Shown here piece by piece: positions 9,119 through 29,106 of a stretch of DNA of 64,000 nucleotides. This DNA comes from Thermodesulfovibrionales bacterium (lineage in GTDB: Bacteria > Nitrospirota > Thermodesulfovibrionia > Thermodesulfovibrionales > UBA6898). A model generated the notes under the pieces. That model worked only from the letters and a program-made list of their open reading frames with translations, was not told where the DNA came from and did no database searches. The translations under genes were made by a program, and so were the position numbers. Each line of letters opens with the position of its first letter. The stretch's first letter is position 1. The stretch lies in contig JBIOIY010000004.1 of NCBI GenBank assembly GCA_044450345.1, positions 64,001 through 128,000 on the forward strand. The letters are read 5' to 3'.

Positions 9119-10516
9119 CTATTCCCCGAAAGTCGCTACCCTGTTTCTGCCCAGGTTTTTTGCATTAAAGAGCGCCTGGTCGGCGCAAGAGATGAGATCA
9201 TCGTGGGTCCCGATCCGGTCGTTGGGAGTTACCGATATGCCGATGCTGACGGTAAGCCCCTCAGTGCTTTTGAGGCTTCTGAACCTATAATTCTCGACTA
9301 TTTCCCTGATCCTCTCAGCCTCTGACAGAGCGCCTTCCAGGGTCGTCTGGGGGAGGAGCAGGATGAACTCCTCTCCGCCGTAGCGGGCCAGCACGTCGCT
9401 CTTGCGCGAATGTTTATTCAGGAGCTGCGCGAATTCCTTGAGGACCGTGTCGCCTGTCCTATGGCCGTACCTGTCGTTGACCTTTTTGAAGTGGTCTATG
9501 TCGAGCATTAGGCAGCTTATGGGTAGCGCATACCTCTGTGAACGACTGAATTCCTCCATGATGCGGTGGTAGAAATATCTGATATTGTAGATGCCCGTCA
9601 GAAAATCCGTCAGGGATAATTTTTCGAGCCTGGATTTTTCGTCCTCGATCTGCTCGTAGAGAAAGGCGTTGTTGAGCGCGTTTGCGGATGTGTTCGCTAT
9701 GGTGTTGAGGAGCCTGATCTCGCTTTTGCTGAAGGCGTGTTCGGCCCTCGATGTCCTGAGGAAGAGCGTCCCTATCACCTTGTCCCTGAAAAATATCGGG
9801 ATGACGAGGATCGAGCGGATGCCGAGCGGCAAGAGGATATGCTTCACGCTTTTCATCAGCGGGTCGGTCCCTATATTTTTTACTATCACAGGCTTTTTTG
9901 ACGTGAGGGACTCGACGATCTCCGGGTATTTTCTGAGGACCAGCTTTATCCCCGACACCTGAGAGTCCTCGAAGCTTGCGACGACGAACGCAGTACGACG
10001 GCTCCAGTCGGCCCTGATTACGGAGCACCGGGTCACCGGCATAATCTCGGCGATCTTAGAGACGATCCTGAACAGGAGTTCTTTCGGATCGAGGGTGGAA
10101 GAGAGGAGTCGGGTGAGGGTCACGACCGTCTCGAGTTCCTTGACCTCCCCGCCGAGGGTCTCGATCATATACCTGTCCGCTATGACCGATTCAAGTTTGT
10201 AGTGAAGGTCTTTTTCGATATACGGCCTGTAGAGGTAACTCCTTACGTTGTGGGCTATAATGTTCTCGATGCCCTTCTTAATATCGCCGGCGACGATCAC
10301 GACGGATGGAAACTTCTTCGTCTTGGCAGCGACCGAATTAAGGAGGGACCCCTCGACTATGAGCACTGCCGGAGGGCTCTTGAGGACGTGGTCCAGAAAG
10401 GCGTCAGGTTCTTCGAAATAACCCGGCCTGTATGTCCTGTATTTCCCGAAATAAGCCTTCAGGAAAGTAAGGACGGCGTTGCTGCGTGCGAGTATCACGG
10501 TCTCTTTGCGTTTCAC
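9119..10516 (-). CDS. Diguanylate cyclase (degenerate REC - GAF - GGDEF)
   Basis: DIDHFKKVND.YGH..GD, RKSD I-site, RYGGEEF. Confidence 0.92.
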   Translation of the reverse strand: MKRKETVILARSNAVLTFLKAYFGKYRTYRPGYFEEPDAFLDHVLKSPPAVLIVEGSLLNSVAAKTKKFPSVVIVAGDIKKGIENIIAHNVRSYLYRPYIEKDLHYKLESVIADRYMIETLGGEVKELETVVTLTRLLSSTLDPKELLFRIVSKIAEIMPVTRCSVIRADWSRRTAFVVASFEDSQVSGIKLVLRKYPEIVESLTSKKPVIVKNIGTDPLMKSVKHILLPLGIRSILVIPIFFRDKVIGTLFLRTSRAEHAFSKSEIRLLNTIANTSANALNNAFLYEQIEDEKSRLEKLSLTDFLTGIYNIRYFYHRIMEEFSRSQRYALPISCLMLDIDHFKKVNDRYGHRTGDTVLKEFAQLLNKHSRKSDVLARYGGEEFILLLPQTTLEGALSEAERIREIVENYRFRSLKSTEGLTVSIGISVTPNDRIGTHDDLISCADQALFNAKNLGRNRVATFGE

Positions 10517-14883: not shown

Positions 14884-14981
14884 GGGAGCGCATCGGGTTC
14901 TGGTGTCCCGCCCGGCCTTCAAAGCCGGTGTTTCCTGCCACAAGCGGGAAGGGTGGGTTCGATTCCCACACGCTCCCGCCA
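14884..14981 (+). tRNA. selC: tRNA-Sec (anticodon TCA)
   Basis: GGGAGCG..CGCTCCC acceptor stem, anticodon arm CCGGC-CTTCAAA-GCCGG, long variable arm, GTTCGATTC T-loop, encoded GCCA end. Confidence 0.95.
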
Positions 14982-15141
14982 AAAAAACTAATTAATTCAA
15001 GCAGTTCTATGGGGAGCGGAAATTTTTTCCTTTAAAATCAACTGTCCCCAGCAAACCTGAGAAATGGTGTCTTCTTTTCTGCCTGAGACCGTACGAAAGA
15101 CTGAAGATTTTATCATGCCTTTTTGATTAAAATTAAAAACC

Positions 15142-17556
15142 ATGTCAGATGCAGAGCGACTGAAGGCAGCGCTTGAAGAATGTGCCCACCTGAAAGAGGA
15201 AAACAAGAGGCTCAAATCACTCCTGGGCATCTTGGAAGAAAAGCCTGAAAGTCCCTCGCCTCCTCAGCCTATAGTTGGAACTTTGTCCCTCGACGACAAG
15301 GTCGCTCTTTTTCGAAATCTCTTCCATGGTCGCGACGATATTTACCCTGTAAGGTGGGAAGGGAAGGACGGAAGATCGGGCTATTCGCCTGCCTGTGCAA
15401 ACGAATGGAAACGGCCTCTATGCGTGAAACCGAAGATCAGATGCTCGGAGTGCGAGCATCGCGAGTTCCGCACTGTAACAAACGAATTAATCCAGAACCA
15501 TCTTTTAGGCAAACAGACCATCGGCGTTTATGCTCTTCTTCCGGATGAAACTTGCTATTTCTTAGCCACAGATTTCGATAAGGAGACGTGGAAAGAGGAT
15601 GCCTCGTCGTTTCTAAAAACTTGTCGTGACTTAAGCGTTCCCGCAGTCCTTGAGCGTTCGCGTTCGGGCAATGGGGGACATATCTGGATATTTTTCAATA
15701 TTCCAATTCAGGCGACATTAGCCCGAAAATTCGGTTCTGCAATGCTCACGTATACGATGGAAAGGAATCCTCAATTGGGCCTGGATTCCTATGATCGTTT
15801 TTTCCCGAGCCAGGATACCATGCCAAAAGGAGGATTCGGCAGCCTTATTGCTTTTCCGCTTCAGCGTGGGCCAAGAAACAAAGGCAACTCTGTTTTTCTC
15901 AATGAAGAATTTAATCCTTATCCTGACCAATGGACTTTTCTTTCCGGCGTCAAAAAAATGCACAAAGAAGAAGTCGAAGAAATTGTGCACACAGCTCAGC
16001 GCAAAGGAAAAATTCTCGGCATTAGAATGAGTCTGACTGAAGAAGGCGACGAAGATCCGTGGACTCTGCCCCCCTCCGGTAGAAAGATAGAAAAGACAGT
16101 TGAGGGCCCCTTCCCTGAGAAAGTCGCTATTATTTTGGGAAACATGGTCTATATTGAAAAGAAGGACTTGCCTCCAGCACTGGTCAACAGAATTATTCGA
16201 CTTTCGGCCTTTCAGAACCCGGAGTTTTATAAGGCACAGGCAATGCGACTGTCCACTTATGAGAAGCCCAGGATAATCTCGTGTGCGGAAGATTTTGGGA
16301 AACATTTGGGTCTTCCCCGAGGCTCCTTGGATGAAGTAATTGAACTGTTAGAGGTTCATGGCATCAAGGCAAATATTAGGGATGAGCGGTTTTCGGGAAT
16401 ACCGATAGATGCTGTCTTCAAAGGTGCCCTTCGTCCTCTTCAAAATGAGCCAACCGCTGAGATATTGAAGCATGACATTGGCGTACTAAGTGCACCTACT
16501 GCGTTTGGCAAGACCGCTATCGCCGCTTATCTAATTGCGGAGCGCAAAGTAAATACGCTGGTATTGGTTCATAGGAGGCTTCTTATGGATCAGTGGCACG
16601 TGCGACTGAAAAGCTTTCTAAATACACCATCTATTGGTCGCATAGGAGGAGGTCGCGGCGATAAGACCGGAAAAATCGACATAGGTATGATTCAAAGCCT
16701 GAATCGCAAGGGCATAGTTAAAGATATCGTAGCGGAGTACGGCCAGGTCATAATTGACGAGTGTCACCATGTTTCGGCCTTCAGTTTTGAGCAGGTTCTG
16801 AGGCAGATGAGGGCCAAATATGTCGTAGGACTTACGGCTACACCGATCAGAAAGGATGGGCATCATCCTATTATCGTTATGCAATGCGGCCCGATTCGTT
16901 TTCGGGTGGATGCCAGAAAACAATCCCGAGAAAGGCCGTTTGAGCATGTGGTAGTCCCAAGGCATACAGCATTCAGGACGCGAAGCACCGATGAGAGTAT
17001 TCAGTCGATGTATGCGGCCATGATCCACGATCAAGAACGCAATGACCTTATATTTAACGATCTCCTCAGCGCTCTTGAAGAGGGTTGTTCTCCGCTGCTG
17101 CTTACCGAGCGTACGGAACATGTGGATGAGTTTGCGGAACGGCTGAAGGGCTTTGCCAAAAACGTGATTGTACTCAAAGGTGGAATGGGGAAAAAGCAAC
17201 GAGCCGCATTAACTGCACAGATTGCTTCTATCCCCGACGGAGAAGAGAGGCTACTTATCGCGACTGGCAAATATATAGGCGAGGGTTTTGATGATGCCCG
17301 GTTGGACGCGCTCTTCTTGGCAATGCCGATTTCGTGGCGTGGAACTCTTCAACAATACGCAGGTCGCCTCCATCGCTTACATGATAACAAAAGAATCGTC
17401 AGAGTTTACGATTATGTCGATGTCCATATCCCGATGCTGATGCGCATGTATCAGAAGCGGCTTAATGGCTATAAGGCAATCGGATACTCGGTTCAGCCTA
17501 ATAACGCCGAAACCGGTGACAGCGTCCCAATTACTTCAATAGATACAGTCCTTTAG
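15142..17556 (+). CDS. Archaeo-eukaryotic-primase-like (TOTE-type) domain fused to SF2 DExD/H helicase
   Basis: N-terminal ATDFD, ERSRSGNGGHIW, YDRFFP.QD, LIAFPLQ; helicase APTAFGKT, IIDECHH, GLTAT, GEGFD and QYAGR. Confidence 0.82.
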   Translation: MSDAERLKAALEECAHLKEENKRLKSLLGILEEKPESPSPPQPIVGTLSLDDKVALFRNLFHGRDDIYPVRWEGKDGRSGYSPACANEWKRPLCVKPKIRCSECEHREFRTVTNELIQNHLLGKQTIGVYALLPDETCYFLATDFDKETWKEDASSFLKTCRDLSVPAVLERSRSGNGGHIWIFFNIPIQATLARKFGSAMLTYTMERNPQLGLDSYDRFFPSQDTMPKGGFGSLIAFPLQRGPRNKGNSVFLNEEFNPYPDQWTFLSGVKKMHKEEVEEIVHTAQRKGKILGIRMSLTEEGDEDPWTLPPSGRKIEKTVEGPFPEKVAIILGNMVYIEKKDLPPALVNRIIRLSAFQNPEFYKAQAMRLSTYEKPRIISCAEDFGKHLGLPRGSLDEVIELLEVHGIKANIRDERFSGIPIDAVFKGALRPLQNEPTAEILKHDIGVLSAPTAFGKTAIAAYLIAERKVNTLVLVHRRLLMDQWHVRLKSFLNTPSIGRIGGGRGDKTGKIDIGMIQSLNRKGIVKDIVAEYGQVIIDECHHVSAFSFEQVLRQMRAKYVVGLTATPIRKDGHHPIIVMQCGPIRFRVDARKQSRERPFEHVVVPRHTAFRTRSTDESIQSMYAAMIHDQERNDLIFNDLLSALEEGCSPLLLTERTEHVDEFAERLKGFAKNVIVLKGGMGKKQRAALTAQIASIPDGEERLLIATGKYIGEGFDDARLDALFLAMPISWRGTLQQYAGRLHRLHDNKRIVRVYDYVDVHIPMLMRMYQKRLNGYKAIGYSVQPNNAETGDSVPITSIDTVL

Positions 17557-17591
17557 AATCCTAAATAAACGTGAAAAAGGCAGTTTTAATT

Positions 17592-17613
17592 TATAGCACT
17601 AATGCTATATACT
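17592..17613 (+). promoter_or_regulatory. Palindromic operator overlapping a -10 box of the TA operon
   Basis: TATAGCA-ctaa-TGCTATA (17592-17609); TATACT at 17608-17613, 5 nt before ATG 17619. Confidence 0.6.
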
Positions 17614-17618
17614 AGAGT

Positions 17619-17972
17619 ATGCAGTGGAGTATTGAATACTATTTGACAGCCGAAGGAAAATGTCCTGTAAAAGATTTTGTCGATGGGCTTTCGCCCGAAG
17701 GTTAGGCTAAATATATTTTCATCACCAGATTGCTTCAAGAATATGGCGTGTTGGTGAAAGCGCCCTATGTGAAACAGTTCACCGGCCATAAGAAGCTTTT
17801 TGAGATCCGGATCAAAGACAAAACGGGAATCAGCAGAATCCTATACTTCACTCATACAGGAAAGAAGTTGATACTTTTGCACGGCTTTACAAAAAAAACG
17901 AACAAGACTCCGGAACGGGAGATAGACACAGCTAAAGAAAGGATGAAAGATTACCTTTCTCGGGAGGCGTAA
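17619..17972 (+). pseudogene. RelE/Gp49-like (HigB-type) toxin interrupted by in-frame TAG
   Basis: MQWSIEYYLTAEGKCPVKDFVDGLSPEG*AKY... continues in frame to LFEIRI..RILYF..LILLHGFTKKTNKTP; TAG at 17703-17705. Confidence 0.88.
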
Positions 17973-17973
17973 G

Positions 17974-18261
17974 ATGAAAAAGAATACCTATGAGGAGCAT
18001 GTAAAGGAGCTCCTGAAAAAGAAGAATGTAAGAGAGGAGTACGAAAAGCTTCTCCCCGAGTACGAACTTGCAAGGAGCATTATTGAACAGCGGCTCAAAA
18101 AAAAGATGACTCAAGAGCAGGTTGCAAAGAAGACCGGAATGCCACAATCAACGATCTCACGAATCGAAGGTCTTACACACGGATTGCCGAAGCTGTCGAC
18201 CCTTAAGAAGATCGCCAATGCACTGGACGCAAAGGTCGTCATTAAGCTTGAAGCAAAATAA
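17974..18261 (+). CDS. XRE-family HTH antitoxin (HigA-type)
   Basis: MTQEQVAKKTGMPQSTISRIE; directly downstream of the toxin. Confidence 0.88.
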   Translation: MKKNTYEEHVKELLKKKNVREEYEKLLPEYELARSIIEQRLKKKMTQEQVAKKTGMPQSTISRIEGLTHGLPKLSTLKKIANALDAKVVIKLEAK

Positions 18262-18603
18262 AATTTTGCATACTTTAGTCGAGACTGTGAAACAAAGTGT
18301 CCCCGAATTGTCCCCAGTAATTTCCGGAAAAGGTGAAAGAACTTGATAATAAAGAACTATATAGACGTTTGAAGTGGGTTCGATTCCCACACGCTCCCGC
18401 CATTTCCCCTTGATCATGAAACATTTCCATCCTTACTATGTAAAATAAAACCGTGAACAGAACGCGTTTTTAGGGCTGGCTTTAGAGCTCTGTTTTGTGA
18501 AACTTGCTTCCTGAAACAAACACAGCCGGGACATGATCCAATGGTGTAGAGTAGAAATGGAATTAGGGGTTGCTGGATCAACAAAAGACTGAATGTGATC
18601 CTT

Positions 18604-20472: not shown

Positions 20473-20594
20473 CGGTGCGCCTTTCTTTCCTCATAGTATA
20501 TTTCGCGGCATTCTTCGAGGTGCATAGCATAGTCTCTTTCATGAGAGCTGTAGTAGGCACATTATCTCCGGACTTTTCCGGCAGGAAATTTTCT

Positions 20595-22373
20595 CTACTG
20601 TCCCGGTTTTATCCTGAAGTAGTCCACGATATCGTCCGGGCCTTCAGCGTTATCGACTACCGGGAAATAGAGGCTGAAGGTAGTTCCTTTTCCGACTTCC
20701 GACTGAAGATCAATTGCCCCGCCGTGGGCCTTAATAATTCCATAAGACATTGCCAACCCGAGTCCGGTGCCCTTTCCCGATTCCTTTGTAGTAAAGAAGG
20801 GGTCGAATATCTTGTCCCGTATCTCTCCGGGTATTCCGGTGCCTGCGTCCTGGATCTTGAGTATCGCATATTCCCCGGGTTCCAGAAGGAGCGGGCTTGC
20901 AATATTTCTCGTAATCTTCCCGGACGACGTTGAGATCGTTATGATTCCCCCGTTCGGCATTGCGTCCGATGCATTCACCAGGAGATTCACCAGTATCTGT
21001 TCTATCTGGTTGATGTCACCCTTGATGAAGGGGAAGTTCTCGGCGGCATGAAACACGACCTGGATGTTCTTTTTTGAGAGCATCCTTTCCAGGAGCTCAA
21101 GCGTGTCGCTTACGGCATGGTTGAGGTTGAGCAGCTTCATCTCAACCGAACCCGTACGGGCGAAGCTCAAAAGCTTTGTAACGATGACATGTGCTTTTAT
21201 CCCGGCCTTCTCGATGATGAGGGCCTTGCTGTGTATGGACGGGTCAACACCTTCTTCGTCGCTGATCAGCTCTGCATAACCCATGATTTGAGTAAGTATG
21301 TTGTTGAAGTCATGCGCAAGTCCTCCTGCGAGGATCCCCAAGGATTCCATCTTCTGGGACTGCAGAAGGTGTTCCTGGAGCCTTTTTTTGTCGGTGATAT
21401 CCCTGTGGAAAGACTGTATGACGATCTGGCGGTCGATTTCAATTGCCTTAGCACTGACTTCAACAAGCAGCTTTTTCCCGTCCTTTTTGAGGTGTTCTGT
21501 CTCAAAGACCAATGCGCTGTCGGCGAGCAGGTTTTTCATCCTCTCCCGAAAGGCGGCGCTGTTTTCTTCCCCTTCCAGGATGTGTATATTGGTACCTAAG
21601 AGGTCGTCCTTTTCGTATCCGTACATAGTGCAGAGGTTGTTGTTCGCATCGAGTATTGTCCCGTTCTCGTCGAGCACGAGGATCCCGTCGTTTGCATTGT
21701 CGAAGAGTTCCTGGAACCTCTTGTTGGAGAGACGCAGTTCTTCTGTCCTTGCCCTCACCATATCATCAAGTGCCTCCGCCTGCTTCTCAAGCTTTTTCTT
21801 TTCTTCGGCAAGGTCAAACTGGAGCTCTACTGCCTGTGCGGTAGCTTTTTCGCTGTGACTTCGTAAGGACAGCGCGATTGCAAACGTGGCAAGCAGGAAC
21901 GCGTTGTTCAGGATAAATGTGGGGATGTCCGTGATCGTGTCGAATACAAGTATCGGCACGAGGTAAATCAGATAGATCAGGGACATGCCGAACATCGCTG
22001 CGGAGAAGCTAAATGGAAAATATCCAAGGACGCAGACTATGAGAAGGATCATGCCTGCGTAGTAGGGTGATTTATGGCCGCCGAGGGCCATGATCATGGC
22101 CTCGATCGTTATGGCAGACAAGGCGGCGGCAACGAAGATGATCACATGCTGGCGTCCGCCGCTCTTCTTCTGATTGAGAATCAGGAGAAAAAGCAAGGCA
22201 ATTGTTATCGAAACCCTGTATATAAGGAACTGCGTGAACAACGTAGGGGTATAGAAGTAGTCAAGGACCCCGAGAAGAAGGAACAGGATCGCCCCGAGCA
22301 CAAGGATCTTGTTTATCCAATGTTGCAGGAGCGACAGAAACTGGTCTTTTATATATTCTTTTTTCTCATCCAT
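20595..22373 (-). CDS. Membrane sensor histidine kinase (5-6 TM, PAS, HisKA, HATPase); no receiver domain
   Basis: Hydrophobic N-terminal ~170 aa; PAS (NANDGI...HLKKDG); H-box AHDFNN; N, G1, F and G2 boxes. Confidence 0.92.
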
Positions 22374-22403
22374 GAAATTGCCCTATGAGAGTTCGCGGGG
22401 AAA

Positions 22404-23678
22404 TCATCTCACTTCCGTTCCACATAACTCCTTGCTCACCATAAAAAATAGGATCACGCCTGATTCTTCACGTGCGGTCGCCACGTTCTTTCTCTCTATC
22501 CCGGCATCCTCCAGTATTTTCCAGCAGTCGCTCTCCTGCCTTTGGTAGAAAGCATCCCAGTCCGAGACCCAGTGATAGTCGAACGTCGAGTATCTCTTGC
22601 AGTCCTTGAATGAGATTATCATAGTGCCGCCGGGATTAAGCAATTGGTAAAGCGCCCTGAACATCCTGACAAGGACAGCGCTCTCCAGGTAATCGTAGAG
22701 CCCGGTGCTGTAAATAATATCCTGCATGCCGAACTCTTTGAGGCTCCTTTCATGGCTTATCATCTTCAGGGCATTATACCTTCTGAAGGTAAAACGGTCC
22801 ATGGATATCCCCGTTGTAGACAGCCTGGAGGCAGAGAATGCAAGGGCATCACCGTCGAGGTCGACGCACGTGACATGGGAATTGTTGGCTTCTATGTCAG
22901 AGGAGATTTCAACGAGCTCCCTGCAGGAGCCACATGCTATGTCCAGTACTTTTGTTTTTTCATGTTTTCGCAGTTCTTTGAGGAGAAGGTCTTTCAAGGC
23001 CTCCTTTCTCCCCCTGACCGCCACTCCAAGCTCGGTGGAGAGGATGTATCTGTCTATGTAGAACCCTATGCCGGTCGATTGAGGCGTGTTCTTGTAGAAC
23101 GCTTCAAGCGTTTTGTAGTCGCCCGGATAGCCCTGGGGCCAGGTGAGTACGCGGCTCCAGAAATAGCTTTTGGCAGAGATCGGATTAGTCCTTCCCCTCA
23201 GTTTTTTCTGAGCTTCTTTTATCTGTTTTTTGTTGTCTCTGTTTTCTTCTTCGAAGAGTTCACAGGCCTTCTTCATATTCATGAAGGTTTGACGGGTCAG
23301 CTTCATGACCTCATCCTGATCGTGGCCAGGGATCAGACACTTTGCCTCGATGGTTTTCATCTCCGCAAGGAACCGGTCAATAGCGGCGGAAAGGGCTTCG
23401 GTCTCGATTGCCTCGAACATTAAGCCCACCCTGAGCATGGAGTCATTGATACGTTTCGTCCACTTTACTACACCGGCGTAGCTTCCTAAGCTGCTTTCCA
23501 TCGTAAGTGTGAGACCCGGCTCCAGCGGGAAATCGGTCTCGATACCTATCCCCGCCTCACTGAAATCATGAATTCTTCCCTTCACGCAAGTCCCTTTCTC
23601 AAGGTGACATTCCACGTCATCCGTAAAGGGTCTTCTGTAAAAACGTCTCATTTCTTCAACGTTAAATGGATCTCCCAT
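22404..23678 (-). CDS. PilZ-domain + class I SAM methyltransferase (PhcB-like)
   Basis: PilZ motifs RRFYR and DFSEAG; WPQGYPGDY; VLDIACGSCRE; YSTGLYDYL. Confidence 0.8.
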   Translation of the reverse strand: MGDPFNVEEMRRFYRRPFTDDVECHLEKGTCVKGRIHDFSEAGIGIETDFPLEPGLTLTMESSLGSYAGVVKWTKRINDSMLRVGLMFEAIETEALSAAIDRFLAEMKTIEAKCLIPGHDQDEVMKLTRQTFMNMKKACELFEEENRDNKKQIKEAQKKLRGRTNPISAKSYFWSRVLTWPQGYPGDYKTLEAFYKNTPQSTGIGFYIDRYILSTELGVAVRGRKEALKDLLLKELRKHEKTKVLDIACGSCRELVEISSDIEANNSHVTCVDLDGDALAFSASRLSTTGISMDRFTFRRYNALKMISHERSLKEFGMQDIIYSTGLYDYLESAVLVRMFRALYQLLNPGGTMIISFKDCKRYSTFDYHWVSDWDAFYQRQESDCWKILEDAGIERKNVATAREESGVILFFMVSKELCGTEVR

Positions 23679-23747
23679 TACTTCCTCCTCAGGGAAATAT
23701 TTTTTGTCGAACCTTCTCAGAACGAAAGGGGCATCACCTCCTCAAAC

Positions 23748-23786
23748 AAAAAAAGCCGCGCTGTATTCTTGCCCTGGCAGCGCGGC
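23748..23786 (-). terminator. Intrinsic terminator in the 5' leader of the methyltransferase gene
   Basis: Minus strand GCCGCGCTG-N14-CAGCGCGGC followed by T7. Confidence 0.8.
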
Positions 23787-23843
23787 CGTCCGTATGCTGG
23801 ATGGCGTTCCATCCCTGTTAATAAGGGGTTGGCTTTATCAGGC
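23771..23843 (-). promoter_or_regulatory. Putative degenerate c-di-GMP-I (GEMM-I)-like riboswitch aptamer
   Basis: Minus strand GCCTGATAAAGCCAACCCC..AGGGATGGAACGCC..GGACGGCCGCGCTGCCAGGGC; P1 pairing; 3' strand overlaps the terminator; lacks the canonical GNRA loop. Confidence 0.5.
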
Positions 23844-23990
23844 ACTTTTTCCCATGCTTCTTCCTAATTAGGGATACTATACCCCCATTTAATCTGGAAT
23901 CGCAAGACCTTCGGCAATATCACGGCGCATTCGCCGACGCCTGAGTTCGTATCCTCTTGTGCGGTGGTAATGTGTTAAAATGAAAGCCTT

Positions 23991-25574
23991 ATGAAAAATG
24001 GAAAAGGAGTAGTGTATCTTGTCGGGGCGGGGCCGGGTGACATCGGCCTGCTGACGGTGAAGGGGCTTAAGTGCCTTCAGAAGGCGGAGGTCGTCATATA
24101 CGATTTCCATCTGAACGCACAGATACTCAACTATATCAGCCACGATGCCGAATTCATATATGCCGGCAAGCGCGGCGGCCACCACACAATGACCCAGGAC
24201 GAGATAAACACGACCATTGTCGCGAAGGCGAAAGAGGGAAAAAACGTCTGCCGTCTCAAGGGCGGCGACCCTTTTGTCTTCGGCAGGGGCGGCGAAGAGG
24301 CCCAGGTCCTTGTGCGGGAGGGAATCAGGTTCGAGGTCGTGCCGGGTGTGAGTTCCTCCATTGCCGCACCCGCGTATGCGGGGATCCCTCTTACCCACAG
24401 GCTTTACTCGTCCTCGTTTGCAGTTATCCCGGGCTACGAAGATACCACAAAAGAGGAGTCCTCCATCGATTGGTCGAAGCTTGCGACAGGGGTGGGCACC
24501 CTCGTTTTTCTCATGGCGGTCAAAAACATTGGGGTGCTTACGCAAAAGCTGATGGAGAACGGCCGGGACCCTGATACGCCTGTTGCCGTGATACGGTGGG
24601 GCACACGGCCGGATCAAAGGACCCTTCAGGGGAGACTGAAAGACATAGCCGATCTCGTTTTCGAAAGGGACATAAAACCACCCGCGGTCATGGTCGTCGG
24701 CGAAGTCGTGAACCTGAGGCAGGAACTGAAATGGTACGAATTGAAGCCGATGTTCGGCCACCGGATACTTGTGACCAGGGAGCATGCGGAGGGGTTCGAG
24801 GACCTGGAGGAACTCGGCGCGGAAGTCGTCCAGTTCTCGACGGTCGAGATCGTCCCTCCTCAGTCCTGGGATGGACTCGACGGCTGCATCGAAGGGATAG
24901 GCTCATACGATTGGGTGATCTTTACGAGTGCCAACGGGGTCAGATATTTCTTCAGCAGGCTTTTTGAGAAAGGTGTCGACATCAGGGATTTGAAAGGCCT
25001 GAAGATCTGCGCGATAGGTACTAAGACCGCCGGTGAGATAAGGAAATTCGGGCTGAAGGTCGACCTGGTCCCCGAGGAATTCAGGGCGGAGGGATTGATA
25101 GAGGCCTTTGTAAAAGAAGTAGGGGCGGGGTCACCCCGCCCCTACGTATTGAAAGGGACCAGGTTCCTTCTTCCCCGTGCAGAGGTCGCGAGGGAGACAT
25201 TTCCGGAAAAGGTCCGTGAACTCGGCGGCGTCATCGATGTGCCTGTGACCTACAGGGCGGTCAAGCCGGAGTATCACGGCAAAAGGATGAGGCGTTTTCT
25301 GAAGGAGGGAAGGATCACCATCGCCACTTTTACGAGCGCTGCCACGTTCAATAACTTCATGGAGATCATGGGGGAGGATTCAGACGAACTCCTCAGGAAT
25401 GTTGCGATAGCCGTCATAGGACCGGTGACTGCAAACGCCGTTAACAAGGCGGGGCTAAAGGTCGGGATAATGCCGGAGGAGGCGACGGTTGAAGCGATGG
25501 TCGAAGAGATAAAGAGATGGGCCGCAGGTAACACCCCTCCCGAAAGTTTTCGGGACGCCCCACTCTTAAGATAA
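23991..25574 (+). CDS. hemD: Uroporphyrinogen-III C-methyltransferase / uroporphyrinogen-III synthase fusion (CobA-HemD)
   Basis: VYLVGAGPGD, RLKGGDPFVFGRGGEE, FTSANGV and FTSAAT motifs. Confidence 0.95.
   Translation: MKNGKGVVYLVGAGPGDIGLLTVKGLKCLQKAEVVIYDFHLNAQILNYISHDAEFIYAGKRGGHHTMTQDEINTTIVAKAKEGKNVCRLKGGDPFVFGRGGEEAQVLVREGIRFEVVPGVSSSIAAPAYAGIPLTHRLYSSSFAVIPGYEDTTKEESSIDWSKLATGVGTLVFLMAVKNIGVLTQKLMENGRDPDTPVAVIRWGTRPDQRTLQGRLKDIADLVFERDIKPPAVMVVGEVVNLRQELKWYELKPMFGHRILVTREHAEGFEDLEELGAEVVQFSTVEIVPPQSWDGLDGCIEGIGSYDWVIFTSANGVRYFFSRLFEKGVDIRDLKGLKICAIGTKTAGEIRKFGLKVDLVPEEFRAEGLIEAFVKEVGAGSPRPYVLKGTRFLLPRAEVARETFPEKVRELGGVIDVPVTYRAVKPEYHGKRMRRFLKEGRITIATFTSAATFNNFMEIMGEDSDELLRNVAIAVIGPVTANAVNKAGLKVGIMPEEATVEAMVEEIKRWAAGNTPPESFRDAPLLR
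25119..25145. repeat. GTAG-type REP palindrome inserted in frame in hemD
   Basis: GTAGGGGCGGGG-TCA-CCCCGCCCCTAC, 27 bp = codons VGAGSPRPY. Confidence 0.85.
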
Positions 25575-25746: not shown

Positions 25747-26529
25747 ATGATTGCAGATAATGACACATATGTGACCGACCCTTACAGACCGCGGTCCCTG
25801 TTCTCGAGGGTCTTTCTCAGTCCTAAATTTATGTTCTACCCTCAGTTCTTCTTTATCATATGGCTGAACGGGAGGAGGGCGGAGAAAGGTCTCTATGGAA
25901 GCAGGGAGTGGGCCGAGAGCAGTCTGGATGTGATGCGCGCTCTTGAGAACGTAGGCGTGCGTATCGAGATCACCGGCATGAACAACATAAAGAGATTCGG
26001 GGGCCCAGCGGTCTTTATCGGCAATCACATGAGCACGCTCGAAACGATGGTGCTGCCGTGCATCATCCAGCCGGTGAAGGAAGCCACCTTTATCGTTAAA
26101 AAGAGCCTTCTGACAATGCCTGTCTTCGGACATGTAATGCGGTCGCGTGACCCTGTTGTCGTCGGCCGTGTGAACCCAAGGGAAGACCTCAAGACGGTCC
26201 TTGAAGAAGGTGTAAAGAGGCTCCAGGCCGGAAGGTCCGTCATCGTATTTCCCCAGAGCACGCGGTCAGTGGTCTTTGACCCGGAGGAATTCAACAGCCT
26301 CGGGATCAAGTTGGCGTCGAGGGCCGGTGTGCCTGTTGTTCCTGTGGCGTTAAAGACCGACGCATGGGGTATCGGGAAACACGTAAAAGAGTTCGGGCCT
26401 GTGGACACCGGGAAAAGAGTCCATTTTGCCTTCGGCGAGCCGATGACGGTAGCGGGCCGGGGAGTCGAAGAACACCAGAAGGTGGTCCGATTTATACAAC
26501 AAAAGCTCGATGAGTGGAGCAAAGAGTAA
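25747..26529 (+). CDS. Lysophospholipid (1-acyl-G3P) acyltransferase family
   Basis: NHMSTLE, VKKSL, VFPQSTR and VPVVPVA motifs. Confidence 0.88.
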   Translation: MIADNDTYVTDPYRPRSLFSRVFLSPKFMFYPQFFFIIWLNGRRAEKGLYGSREWAESSLDVMRALENVGVRIEITGMNNIKRFGGPAVFIGNHMSTLETMVLPCIIQPVKEATFIVKKSLLTMPVFGHVMRSRDPVVVGRVNPREDLKTVLEEGVKRLQAGRSVIVFPQSTRSVVFDPEEFNSLGIKLASRAGVPVVPVALKTDAWGIGKHVKEFGPVDTGKRVHFAFGEPMTVAGRGVEEHQKVVRFIQQKLDEWSKE

Positions 26530-26572
26530 AAAGTGAAAAATGAATGGTGAATAGAAAAAAGCAGAGGGTGCA

Positions 26573-26821
26573 ATGGACATAAGCAACGAAGACATTAAAG
26601 AGGTCCTGGTGGAGATACCCGAAGGCCATCGCCACGTTAGGACAAGGATAGTTCTCCAGGACGGCACGGAGTTCGTCTTTCAGGAGGCAGCGGTGGCAAA
26701 CATCGTGCGCGCCTTTATCACTGTGAAGACACACCCCGAGAAGGCCTCGGTCAGGCTGAAGGGAAGGCGTTCCGAAAAAGGGAAACCAGGCTACGCCGAA
26801 TGGCAGTTGGTCGAGGAGTGA
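26573..26821 (+). CDS. Hypothetical protein
   Basis: 82-aa ORF with RBS (gaggg) and plausible composition. Confidence 0.7.
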   Translation: MDISNEDIKEVLVEIPEGHRHVRTRIVLQDGTEFVFQEAAVANIVRAFITVKTHPEKASVRLKGRRSEKGKPGYAEWQLVEE

Positions 26822-26876
26822 GACGGCATGCCTTCTGTTTCTCTTATCCCGCACGGCGTGGTACATTAATAGTGCC

Positions 26877-26993
26877 ATGGCTCAGAAGATACTTGGGGTC
26901 GATGACGATATGACCGGTTATTTCATCGAAGAGCCCTTCAGCATAGAGGCGCTCAGGAAAAAGGGTAAAGAAATATTATATGGGCCTTCCTGA
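26877..26993 (+). pseudogene. Collapsed response-regulator receiver remnant (38 codons)
   Basis: MAQKILGVDDD...YFIEEPFSIEALRKKGKEIL joins REC beta1 and beta5-alpha5 signatures. Confidence 0.55.
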
Positions 26994-29106
26994 AATAGAC
27001 ACTTCCTTATTCCTCCTCATTAACAAAAATCTCCGGAACGGACTCTTCGATGTAGTGATGCCCTTTGTCTCGAACAATTCGAAGGTCATCTTCCTGCCCC
27101 TTCTTCTCTGGATAGTCGTCAGAGAGCGGTCCAAGGCATTGTCTTACGTGGTGATATCAGTCCTTGCGGTCGCCTTCGCAGACGCAGGAGGAGGGGTCCT
27201 GAAGAACCTGATCGCAAGGGTCAGACCGTGTAACGCCCTCGAAGGCGTCAATCTTCTCGTGGGGTGCGGAAAATCTTTCTCTATGCCTTCAAACCACGCA
27301 TCGAACGCCTTTGCATTCGCGATGGCCTTTTGGTCCCTGCGCAGGGATGTCGTGACCTCCTTCTTTGTCTTTGTCGCCGCAGTTATCGGCATATCGAGGG
27401 TGTATGTGGGCGTCCACTACCCCTTCGATGTGGTTGCGGGCACAGCGCTCGGCACCGGATGCGCATATGGGGCGAGGAGGCTCTTTCGATGGGCATCCGA
27501 TGTGTACAGACGGAGGGATTACGGCCAGGCCCTCTTTCTGATGGTCATGGCCTTCAGCCTCTTCCGTATTTATTATATCCTCAGCAGCCCCTTTGACCTT
27601 AGCGCCGACGAGGCGCATTACTGGGAATGGGCGAGGCGGCCCGACTGGAGTTATTATTCGAAAGGCCCGATGATCGCGTACCTGATCTATGCGGGGACAG
27701 CGGTCTTCGGCAACACTGTATTCGGCGTAAGGATATTCGCGGTCGTCCTATCTGCCTTGAGCAGCGTCGTGCTTTTCAAACTGGGAAAAAGGCTCTACGG
27801 CGAGAGGACGGGGCTTCTGGCGGCGCTCCTGGTCCAGGTGGTCCCCCTTTATTCGGTATACGGAGTTCTCCTGACGATAGACTCCCCTTTCATCTTTTTC
27901 TGGATACTTTCGCTCTACCTCTTCTGGAAGGCGATCGAAACTAAGCGTGCCGTTGCACCGGCCAGGGTAGACGGTAAAATAGCAGCTCCCCCTTCATCCC
28001 CCCCCTTGTCGGAGCGACCCTTCGCGGAGACCCGCTTCGGGAGAGGAGGGGATGAAGGGGAGGGCGACCGCATTGGCAACTGGATCTTGCTGGGTATTGC
28101 GATCGGCCTCGGACTTCTGACGAAGTATACCATGGCATTTTTTTATCTTTCCGGTTTGCTCTTCTTTGTCTTTCATAAAGACTCCCGGGAGTTCCTTTAC
28201 GGCAAAGGGCCGTATATCTCTCTTTTAGTAAGTCTTATGGTCTTCAGTCCGGTTATCATCTGGAACGCTGCCCACGGCTGGGTTACCCTGAAGCACACTG
28301 CGGGACAGGCCCACCTTGCAGACGGTCTTATGATCTCGCCAAAAGATTTTTTCGAGTTCCTTGGTTCGCAGGCCGGCGTGATCACCCCCCTTCTTTTCGT
28401 GGGTATGTTAGTCGCGCTCTGGAAGATGCGCAAAGACAGGGCGGGCGCGTTTATATTCTGGTTTTCCGTGCCCGTGGTCCTTTTCTTTGTCCTCAAAAGC
28501 TTGCAGGGAAAGGTGCAGGCGAACTGGGCGCTGCCGGGCTATGCGGCGGGGTTCATAGCATTTTCCGCATACTTTGCCGGAGGCGGGATGCCCTCAAAGG
28601 GACGCTCCAAAATACTTCCGGCGCTCGCGGTCCTGCTGGCTTTTACCCTTACCGCATTCGCTTATTTCCCCTCGGTCCTTCATCTCCCCAGGAAGATGGA
28701 CCCGACGATGAGACTACTCGGCTGGAAGGAACTGGGTCAAGAGACGGGCCGGATTTATGAAGGGCTCTCATCACAGGGGCCGGCATTCGTCTTTTCCGAC
28801 AGCTACCAGATGGCCAGCGAACTCGCCTTTTATATGAAGGGCAACCCGACGACCTACTGTATCAATCTCGGCAGGCGCATGGACCAGTACGACCTCTGGC
28901 CGGGCTTCGAAAATTATATAGGCTGCAACGCGCTCCTGGTGATGGATGATGACCGGGAATTTCCCCAGGAGCTGGCAAAGAGCTTCGGGAGGACCGAGAA
29001 AGTGGCGGTCGTCATAACGGTGAGGGGCGACAAGGTAATGAAATTTACGGTGTTCAAGTGTTATGATTTCAAGGGTATTAAATCCAGGCCCCCGGAGACT
29101 TTTTAA
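26980..29106 (+). CDS. PAP2 phosphatase fused to ArnT/PMT-like (GT-C) glycosyltransferase
   Basis: K...RVRP, SMPSNH, SRVYVGVHY (PAP2); DEAHYWEW, KGPM, GLLTKY (ArnT-like). Confidence 0.88.
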   Translation: MGLPEIDTSLFLLINKNLRNGLFDVVMPFVSNNSKVIFLPLLLWIVVRERSKALSYVVISVLAVAFADAGGGVLKNLIARVRPCNALEGVNLLVGCGKSFSMPSNHASNAFAFAMAFWSLRRDVVTSFFVFVAAVIGISRVYVGVHYPFDVVAGTALGTGCAYGARRLFRWASDVYRRRDYGQALFLMVMAFSLFRIYYILSSPFDLSADEAHYWEWARRPDWSYYSKGPMIAYLIYAGTAVFGNTVFGVRIFAVVLSALSSVVLFKLGKRLYGERTGLLAALLVQVVPLYSVYGVLLTIDSPFIFFWILSLYLFWKAIETKRAVAPARVDGKIAAPPSSPPLSERPFAETRFGRGGDEGEGDRIGNWILLGIAIGLGLLTKYTMAFFYLSGLLFFVFHKDSREFLYGKGPYISLLVSLMVFSPVIIWNAAHGWVTLKHTAGQAHLADGLMISPKDFFEFLGSQAGVITPLLFVGMLVALWKMRKDRAGAFIFWFSVPVVLFFVLKSLQGKVQANWALPGYAAGFIAFSAYFAGGGMPSKGRSKILPALAVLLAFTLTAFAYFPSVLHLPRKMDPTMRLLGWKELGQETGRIYEGLSSQGPAFVFSDSYQMASELAFYMKGNPTTYCINLGRRMDQYDLWPGFENYIGCNALLVMDDDREFPQELAKSFGRTEKVAVVITVRGDKVMKFTVFKCYDFKGIKSRPPETF
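27986..28062. repeat. Palindromic element inserted in frame in the ArnT-like gene
   Basis: CTCCCCCTTCATCCCCCCCCT ... AGGAGGGGATGAAGGGGAG imperfect IR; peptide APPSSPPLSERPFAETRFGRGGDEGE. Confidence 0.75.

Follow-up and report, generated by a model that had tools for sequence, protein, structure and literature searches.

A two-gene module on the minus strand of a Thermodesulfovibrionales genome (Nitrospirota; assembly GCA_044450345.1, contig JBIOIY010000004.1) encodes a methyltransferase with an N-terminal PilZ domain, followed by a membrane sensor histidine kinase. The module lies in a stretch of 64,000 nucleotides (nt), positions 64,001 to 128,000 of the contig, which is called here, at its full length, the window. 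From sequence and model comparisons we give an even chance to the reading that this locus is a lipid methyl-ester synthase/receptor pair of the Phc kind described in Ralstonia, with the synthase under the control of cyclic di-GMP (c-di-GMP). The reading draws on the domains of the two proteins, the intact PilZ motifs, the homology of both proteins to those of a Phc-type operon, the linkage of the two genes in relatives, the acyl-chain cassette carried by many of these relatives, and the presence of the module as an insertion. The two co-oriented open reading frames (ORFs), at 22404-23678 and 20595-22373, are exactly 30 nt apart, and an earlier sequence-only reading of this DNA was correct on the two-gene arrangement, its coordinates and its gap. 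The features of the locus are listed below, with residue positions given as amino acids (aa) and the basis of each assignment in brackets.

20595..22373, minus strand: membrane sensor histidine kinase, 592 aa (ORF, Pfam, AlphaFold2 (AF2) model)
21759..22373, minus strand: membrane sensor domain of the kinase, aa 1-205, MASE8-like (hhalign, AF2 model)
22374..22403, minus strand: 30-nt intergenic gap from methyltransferase stop to kinase start (sequence)
22404..23678, minus strand: PilZ-fused class I S-adenosylmethionine (SAM)-dependent methyltransferase, 424 aa, PhcB-like family (ORF, Pfam, AF2 model)
22434..23150, minus strand: helical cap with the TWPxGxxGDY motif and Rossmann methyltransferase core, aa ~177-415 (alignment, AF2 model)
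23364..23648, minus strand: PilZ domain, aa 11-105, with RxxxR (R11-R15) and DFSEAG (aa 38-43) (Pfam, E 5.1e-9)
23744..23787, minus strand: terminator-like hairpin (10 bp, 14-nt loop) and U7GUUU tract in the 5' leader (sequence, folding)
23876..23905, minus strand: sigma-70-like promoter candidate, TTGCGA-18 nt-TATAGT (9 of 12 consensus matches)
20500..23955, no strand assigned: inserted module in its approximate extent, with kinase, methyltransferase and leader (congener comparison, GC content)

The N-terminal part of the methyltransferase matches Pfam PF07238 (PilZ) over aa 11-105 with 36.8 bits, against a gathering cut-off of 22.5. The AF2 model shows the PilZ beta-barrel as six strands at aa 16-88, a block with predicted local distance difference test (pLDDT) values of 75-90. 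The motifs R11-x-x-x-R15 and D38-F-S-E-A-G43 are both present, and passages of bioRxiv 10.1101/814665 report that the c-di-GMP-binding motifs have been refined to RxxxR and [D/N]hSxxG. RxxxR is kept in 31 of 32 long-form relatives, the sole exception being probably due to start-codon choice, and [D/N/E]x[S/C]xxG is kept in all 32, three of them with Cys for Ser. Judged by its sequence, the PilZ domain is canonical and looks functional, and binding of c-di-GMP is predicted. Domain searches of the whole genome gave 20 GGDEF and 23 PilZ matches, and c-di-GMP signalling therefore appears to be in use in this organism. A canonical PilZ barrel with RxxxR and [D/N]hSxxG joined to a catalytic domain is also found in cellulose synthase BcsA and in Alg44, which are PilZ receptors fused to enzymes (in part after the abstract of bioRxiv 10.1101/814665). 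Such a fusion implies allosteric control of biosynthetic output by c-di-GMP. Unlike in BcsA and Alg44, the output domain of the window protein is a predicted small-molecule methyltransferase.

The catalytic part is covered by the class I methyltransferase Pfam models Methyltransf_25, Methyltransf_31 and Methyltransf_12 at aa ~240-355, with a weaker match to Methyltransf_20, and no NCBIfam family scored above cut-off for this protein. In the AF2 model of the enzyme (pLDDT 87.9) the beta-barrel at aa 16-88 is followed by a long helical region (aa 93-236) and a Rossmann domain (aa 243-415). The class I SAM-dependent fold is accompanied by motif I in the form LDIACGS, with C249, G250 and E254 invariant in the family. 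The motifs PQGYPGDY and GLYDYL, which the sequence-only reading had picked out, are present at aa 181-188 and 326-331, and its fusion of a PilZ domain to a SAM methyltransferase holds as well. Among solved structures, the fold of the enzyme comes closest to those of 3ocj (a Bordetella protein that is uncharacterised), SgvM (a keto-acid C-methyltransferase), cyclopropane fatty acid synthases and further small-molecule methyltransferases; a sequence search of the PDB with the enzyme gave weak generic methyltransferase matches only.

Sequence comparison puts the enzyme in a very large family, to which the PhcB group of Burkholderiales belongs as well. A word-indexed search revealed 335 homologues, which include long forms of ~426 aa and short forms of ~350 aa without the PilZ part. 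Among the 120 homologues listed, 17 are labelled by JGI as 'extracellular factor (EF) 3-hydroxypalmitic acid methyl ester biosynthesis protein', the wording that KEGG has for PhcB, and the organisms named among the homologues are Nitrospirota, Thermodesulfovibrionales and Nitrospinae. No organism-specific PhcB name was found among 20 cluster representatives of the family. An alignment of 25 members has 43 invariant positions, including TWPxGxxGDY, motif I and YSxGLxDY; the invariant columns include W180, P181, G183, G186, D187, C249, G250, E254, D273, Y323, G326, D329 and Y330. A profile search of 1.84 billion cluster representatives retrieved 5265 proteins at E<=1e-3, of which 3217 pass E<=1e-10 and 491 pass E<=1e-30. 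PilZ was detected at E<=1e-3 in 23 of 27 long representatives selected by their length, and two of the 23 fall just below the gathering score. The same 27 contain two proteins with tandem PilZ domains (P0247 and P0256), one with a receiver and PilZ (P0227) and one with a receiver and no PilZ match (P0268). As leads only, the nearest clusters of the ESM Atlas are proteins of 470-520 aa with PilZ in Pseudomonadota, Myxococcota and Bdellovibrionota, and in one structural neighbour from the Atlas a cyclic nucleoside monophosphate (cNMP)-binding domain replaces PilZ.

The relation to PhcB was measured on a protein of Paraburkholderia graminis as a stand-in for the PhcB group. A tblastn search of a plasmid collection gave 131 records, all below 60% identity, and led to the Paraburkholderia graminis plasmid NZ_CP024936.1 (locus L112). 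This plasmid encodes a 468-aa methyltransferase (L112:5497-6903), then a 445-aa histidine kinase and then two receiver proteins, in the gene order phcB-phcS-phcR-phcQ. The 468-aa protein is 65-92% identical to proteins of Paraburkholderia, Cupriavidus (68%), Massilia, Pseudoduganella and Janthinobacterium; several of these, like the 468-aa protein itself, carry the KEGG PhcB wording in their JGI records, and one is named 'Regulatory protein', the name given to RSc2735 in Table 1 of PMC6989110. Passages of the same article report that PhcB homologues exist in Cupriavidus and Paraburkholderia, that C. taiwanensis has orthologues of both phcB and phcS, and that PhcB makes the methyl ester of 3-hydroxymyristic or 3-hydroxypalmitic acid (3-OH MAME/PAME), which is thought to trigger PhcS. 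The synthesis of 3-hydroxy fatty acid methyl esters by the Ralstonia enzyme is stated in passages of PMC6989110 and in the abstract of PMC10576176.

The window enzyme aligns to the Paraburkholderia protein by BLASTP with E 5e-17, at 23% identity over 287 columns (aa 124-396), and the family profile matches it by hhalign with 99.0% probability and E 8e-18. TKPLGYAGDY and GLFDYL of the Paraburkholderia protein correspond to TWPQGYPGDY and GLYDYL of the window enzyme. Of the 43 positions at which the Nitrospirota alignment is invariant, the Paraburkholderia protein keeps 21, among them those of PxGYxGDY, motif I and YxxGLxDY. The resemblance to PhcB, which the sequence-only reading had proposed from its two motifs, was upheld, with both motifs shared. 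On these alignments the relation between the window enzyme and the PhcB group is real but distant, and the same substrate is not to be assumed.

The N-terminal parts differ. Unlike the window enzyme, the Paraburkholderia protein has no PilZ detectable by Pfam in its N-terminal 120 aa, and a hidden PilZ in the N-terminus of the PhcB group was considered and rejected (hhalign against the PilZ profile of the window family, probability 0.1%). Passages of PMC6989110 describe an adaptive R22C change in PhcB that lies beyond the methyltransferase domain and hits a residue which is conserved in Cupriavidus and Paraburkholderia; residue 22 of the Paraburkholderia methyltransferase is R. The N-terminal ~170 aa of the PhcB group seem to be functionally important, though not detectably PilZ. 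An unaligned comparison of residue numbers with other mutations in that article was uninformative (kinase residue 161 is F, not L; residue 154 of the second receiver is V, not R). The Paraburkholderia protein also matched CheR below threshold, with 18.8 bits where the cut-off is 27, which speaks for the alternative that the window methyltransferase modifies a macromolecule, such as its partner kinase or an RNA, and not a small molecule. We hold this to be very improbable: no CheR, rRNA or tRNA methyltransferase model reaches its curated cut-off with the window protein, the top structural neighbours of the enzyme are nearly all small-molecule or lipid enzymes (one ribosomal RNA methyltransferase, 3c0k, stands at rank 40), and the acyl-chain cassette of its relatives, described below, points to an acyl substrate.

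The product of the second gene was described in the sequence-only reading as a multi-transmembrane sensor kinase, in agreement with the present analysis. Pfam places PAS at aa 219-328, HisKA at aa 348-407 and HATPase_c at aa 452-572; a receiver domain is absent, and the ~200 N-terminal residues have no Pfam match. The AF2 model of the N-terminus (pLDDT 91.4) has six helices in aa 1-~180, the last of which extends into a long linker helix. Of 28 aligned membrane domains of the family, 19 match Pfam MASE8 at E<=0.01 (best 2.4e-7); that of the window kinase matches it neither at E<=0.01 nor at E<=10, and the Paraburkholderia kinase matches it weakly (E 0.0044). Compared with this Phc-type kinase, the membrane-domain profile gave an hhalign probability of 97.7% and E 1.3e-12 over 170 columns; the sensor domains are homologous, if distantly. 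The pair resembles the Paraburkholderia operon in its layout as well, with a co-oriented kinase gene after that of a methyltransferase bearing PxGYxGDY and YxxGLxDYL, and with homologous six-helix membrane domains in the kinases. Invariant polar residues lie inside the membrane helices (D38, R53, G98, G99, S102 and Y104). A six-helix bundle with a long helix leading into a cytoplasmic module is also seen in the anchors of membrane nucleotide cyclases, but the structural matches of the modelled domain are weak and without sequence relationship: ImcA (8wcn) was found with E 0.018, the best value, and a TM-score of 0.58-0.64, and membrane adenylyl cyclases with TM-scores of 0.64-0.66. A PDB sequence search with the membrane domain gave no matches. 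CqsS-type sensors of lipophilic autoinducers, which we take to be six-helix membrane receptors, would have an architecture like that of the window kinase.

Linkage of the two genes was surveyed in the best 80 of 172 relatives, mostly Nitrospirota and none from Burkholderiales. A homologue of kinase aa 1-205, with 35-49% identity, is encoded on the same strand and downstream of the methyltransferase in 43 of the 80 loci, and there is one weaker match besides. The kinase is within 1.5 kb of the methyltransferase in 15 of these 43 loci, and in the other 28 it comes after a cassette of acyl-chain genes. This cassette consists of a ketosynthase (KS), a FabA-like dehydratase, a second KS and usually a FAD amine-oxidase-like protein, often with a ketoreductase ahead, and it is found downstream of the methyltransferase in 56 of the 80 loci (for example L024:8192-12825). 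Wherever at least 1.2 kb of downstream sequence is available (71 of 71 loci), either the cassette or the kinase comes next; in the nine loci with neither, the downstream sequence runs on for no more than 1176 nt. A kinase is not visible in 37 loci: 30 of these stop short of 7 kb past the methyltransferase, and the remaining 7 have the cassette and end at 7 kb. The methyltransferase-kinase linkage is near-obligate and strongly conserved, and the kinase linkage on which the sequence-only reading had made its proposal depend is present. Genes for NfeD and SPFH/Band-7 proteins stand immediately upstream of the methyltransferase in 30 of the 80 loci (for example L024:4652-6797), and these neighbours accompany 25 of 32 PilZ-bearing forms.

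The cassette and the upstream neighbours bring in the main rival explanation, by which the enzyme and the cassette make or modify a membrane lipid that does not diffuse, and the kinase monitors this lipid or the bilayer and feeds back on expression. Here c-di-GMP would couple envelope remodelling to lifestyle. Such a membrane-lipid modification with a homeostatic sensor accords with the position of the cassette, between the two genes in 28 of 43 loci and downstream of the methyltransferase in 56 of 80, with the membrane microdomain genes NfeD and SPFH upstream in 30 of 80 loci and 25 of 32 PilZ forms, and with the cyclopropane fatty acid synthases among the nearest folds. We nevertheless consider it unlikely, if the most serious of the alternatives, since the Phc-type pair to which both proteins are homologous has a released signal as its product, the NfeD/SPFH linkage may reflect no more than lineage synteny, and this genome has the pair without the cassette, with no oxidase match and KS matches elsewhere of only 36-38% identity.

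The module is a lower-GC insertion of ~3.4 kb in this genome. A sampling of 61 genomes gave the methyltransferase in 14, counting this one; it was detected in no other genome of the genus (7 sampled) and in 2 of the 36 other genomes from the family. A congener (G004) has the empty site, with the helicase and cobA/hemD genes back to back and 139 nt between them; its similarity to the window breaks off near 20500 and picks up again near 23955. The two module genes have a GC content of 49.5% and 50.0%, against 56.7% and 55.9% for the flanking genes, and no convincing terminal repeats flank the insertion. A metagenome contig (L107) shares the arrangement, with a methyltransferase 85% identical at the protein level and a DNA identity of 89-94.5% across the region. 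The acyl cassette was not found in this genome, which is 91% complete, with the queries used: there was no oxidase match, and KS matches elsewhere in the genome have only 32-38% identity. The window version is a minimal form, with two genes and no cassette, and is convenient for expression and assay.

For a Phc-like pair under c-di-GMP control the following course of events is proposed. The enzyme would O-methylate a fatty-acid-derived carboxylate, supplied in this genome by housekeeping fatty-acid synthesis. The hydrophobic methyl ester would partition into membranes and be sensed by the membrane domain of the kinase, which would hand its phosphate to an unlinked receiver. Binding of c-di-GMP to PilZ would raise or lower signal synthesis, and the signal output would then depend on the c-di-GMP state of the cell.

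Several results weigh against this proposal. The sequence identity is only 23%, and 22 of the 43 family-invariant residues differ in the Paraburkholderia protein, including the C-terminal FKD, W370 and Y301/N302; the substrate may therefore differ from that of PhcB. The comparison with PhcB and PhcS runs through the Paraburkholderia stand-ins. Membrane-lipid biology would account just as well for the acyl cassette and for the NfeD/SPFH genes so often found nearby. Most relatives of the module differ from Phc in carrying their own acyl-chain cassette and a hybrid kinase. The window kinase has a PAS domain which the Paraburkholderia kinase lacks, and its input could therefore be cytoplasmic. In further contrast to Phc, PhcR/PhcQ-type receivers are not adjacent: no receiver domain was detected by Pfam in the neighbouring genes, as the sequence-only reading had also observed. 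A PhcQ-type output domain was not found with one query in the 91%-complete genome, where the PhcQ-like query gave generic receiver-domain matches only and its C-terminal part remained unmatched. In a Mantel comparison of 25 pairs, methyltransferase distances correlated with those of the cytoplasmic part of the kinase at r 0.69 and with those of the membrane part at r 0.49 (partial r 0.34); the genes are co-inherited, but no special co-variation of enzyme and sensor is seen. Finally, no kinase lies beside the more distant family members on the Rhizobium and Nitratireductor plasmids.

Some of these results would also suit a regulatory coupling without ligand sensing, in which the kinase responds to an unrelated input (redox or a metabolite), received by PAS or by the membrane domain, and shares no more than a transcript with the enzyme that it helps to regulate. 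PAS was found in the eight kinases of relatives scanned by Pfam as well as in the window kinase, and the lack of special co-variation between the enzyme and the membrane domain agrees with such a scheme. Among the 26 kinases of relatives with a stop codon in the locus, 22 have 704-721 aa, two have 592-596 aa like that of the window and two are short and probably broken; a C-terminal receiver domain was found by Pfam in three of three long kinases scanned, which suggests a longer phosphorelay. Coupling of this kind is nonetheless decidedly unlikely in our judgement, given that the part common to the Paraburkholderia kinase is the membrane domain and not PAS, that invariant polar residues lie within the helices, and that the linkage survives both a 5-kb cassette insertion and horizontal transfer.

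In its wider form the Phc-like reading is more tentative. It is possible, at somewhat less than an even chance, that Phc-type signalling, far from being peculiar to Burkholderiales, is a widespread and horizontally mobile module, and that in Nitrospirota and many other phyla the synthase is gated directly by PilZ/c-di-GMP or by receiver or cNMP-binding inputs. If the Phc-like reading is true, the output of a cell-to-cell signal would be set by the intracellular second-messenger state, and a single polypeptide would join the two main decision systems of bacteria, c-di-GMP inside the cell and autoinducers outside it. Private signals of distinct chemistry would come from lineages that have an acyl cassette of their own, and the quorum-sensing chemistry of plant-pathogenic Ralstonia would extend to uncultivated environmental lineages. 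Literature searches, confined to openly searchable papers, yielded neither a description of such a PilZ-methyltransferase fusion nor one of a Phc-like system in Nitrospirota. In bioRxiv 10.1101/814665 the sole methyltransferase passage concerns MapZ-CheR, and in passages of literature naming PhcB together with PilZ, pilZ is a pilus gene or a general mention. Members of the wider family with ~26% identity occur on plasmids of Nitratireductor (L119) and Rhizobium etli (L121), where they are divergent from EAL-domain genes; these neighbours are another possible tie of the wider family to c-di-GMP. A copy on a Pseudanabaena plasmid adjoins a convergent HAMP kinase and a receiver.

The leader of the operon had been read as riboswitch-like with a terminator, and one part of this description stood. 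The divergent intergenic region has 312 nt; at 23787-23744, 65 nt ahead of the methyltransferase start codon, it contains a hairpin with a stem of 10 G+C-rich pairs (-18.9 kcal/mol) and then U7GUUU. The hairpin and U-run lie ~90 nt downstream of the likely transcription start, as judged from a promoter that is a consensus match only, and the related contig L107 keeps the hairpin in a shortened form (7 pairs, U6). From its sequence and folding, this element is a credible intrinsic terminator inside the 5' leader. The same layout, a promoter-like site and then a hairpin and U-run before the start codon, is that of a transcription attenuator, and it would suit the alternative that the leader is a cyclic-dinucleotide riboswitch through which c-di-GMP controls the module twice, by termination and by PilZ.

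The c-di-GMP-I and c-di-GMP-II riboswitches are presumably Rfam RF01051 and RF01786. The window leader shares only their position, upstream of a signalling operon and with a terminator-like hairpin; unlike them, it is matched by no riboswitch covariance model even at E<=10 and lacks a conserved aptamer-like structure. Rfam gave no riboswitch at the gathering score in the whole window, and at E<=10 in 23500-24100 it matched an anti-hemB model (18.9 bits against 49.5, on the other strand) and a long non-coding RNA model, with no riboswitch. In 12 related loci the only match at the gathering score was a tRNA. The folding energy of the leader was ordinary against shuffled sequences (z -1.42 and -0.84), and no second copy was present in the genome, where just a 16-nt chance match was found. 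When the leader was compared with the 320-nt regions upstream of the gene in 75 other loci, no similarity emerged, and only 3 of the 75 have a comparable hairpin. L107 is the sole relative with a similar leader and, at 91.6-93% identity, carries no covariation signal; this identity shows no extra constraint when set against 89.2-94.5% in the neighbouring genes, and a small hairpin upstream of the terminator is lost. Conservation of the leader first looked high (93%) and was rejected as evidence since it is within the range of the neighbouring genes. The riboswitch alternative is accordingly highly doubtful, and the simplest account of the leader hairpin is a terminator, ordinary or leaky, or an attenuator, and not a c-di-GMP riboswitch. 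Transcriptional control by a cyclic dinucleotide, which the sequence-only reading had added to allosteric control, is unsupported because the riboswitch is unsupported. A five-codon mini-ORF, MGKSA (MGKSS in L107), lies at 23845-23865 on the minus strand behind AGGAAG and upstream of the hairpin, and a second mini-ORF, after the hairpin, is not conserved in L107; both may be chance.

The inserted module is bordered by a cobA/hemD fusion gene, which is divergent and starts at 23991 on the plus strand, and by a DinG-like helicase gene at 20472-18604, after the kinase gene. Beyond cobA/hemD, a PlsC-type acyltransferase and then a 708-aa PAP2 and PMT_2 (glycosyltransferase-39-like) fusion are encoded at 25747-29106 on the plus strand; these are lipid/envelope genes outside the inserted module. 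A GGDEF-domain gene (473-aa frame) lies at ~9140-9613 on the minus strand, ~11 kb from the module. The region 14884-18261 contains a tRNA-Sec gene (Rfam 70.5 bits) and, directly after it, a gene for an 804-aa protein with an archaeo-eukaryotic primase domain of the TOTE conflict system (E 2.7e-99) and a ResIII/DEAD helicase, next to which is a gene with an XRE-type helix-turn-helix. The GC content is 42-50% across 16000-18600, and 14884-18261 looks like a small defence or mobile island at a tRNA gene.

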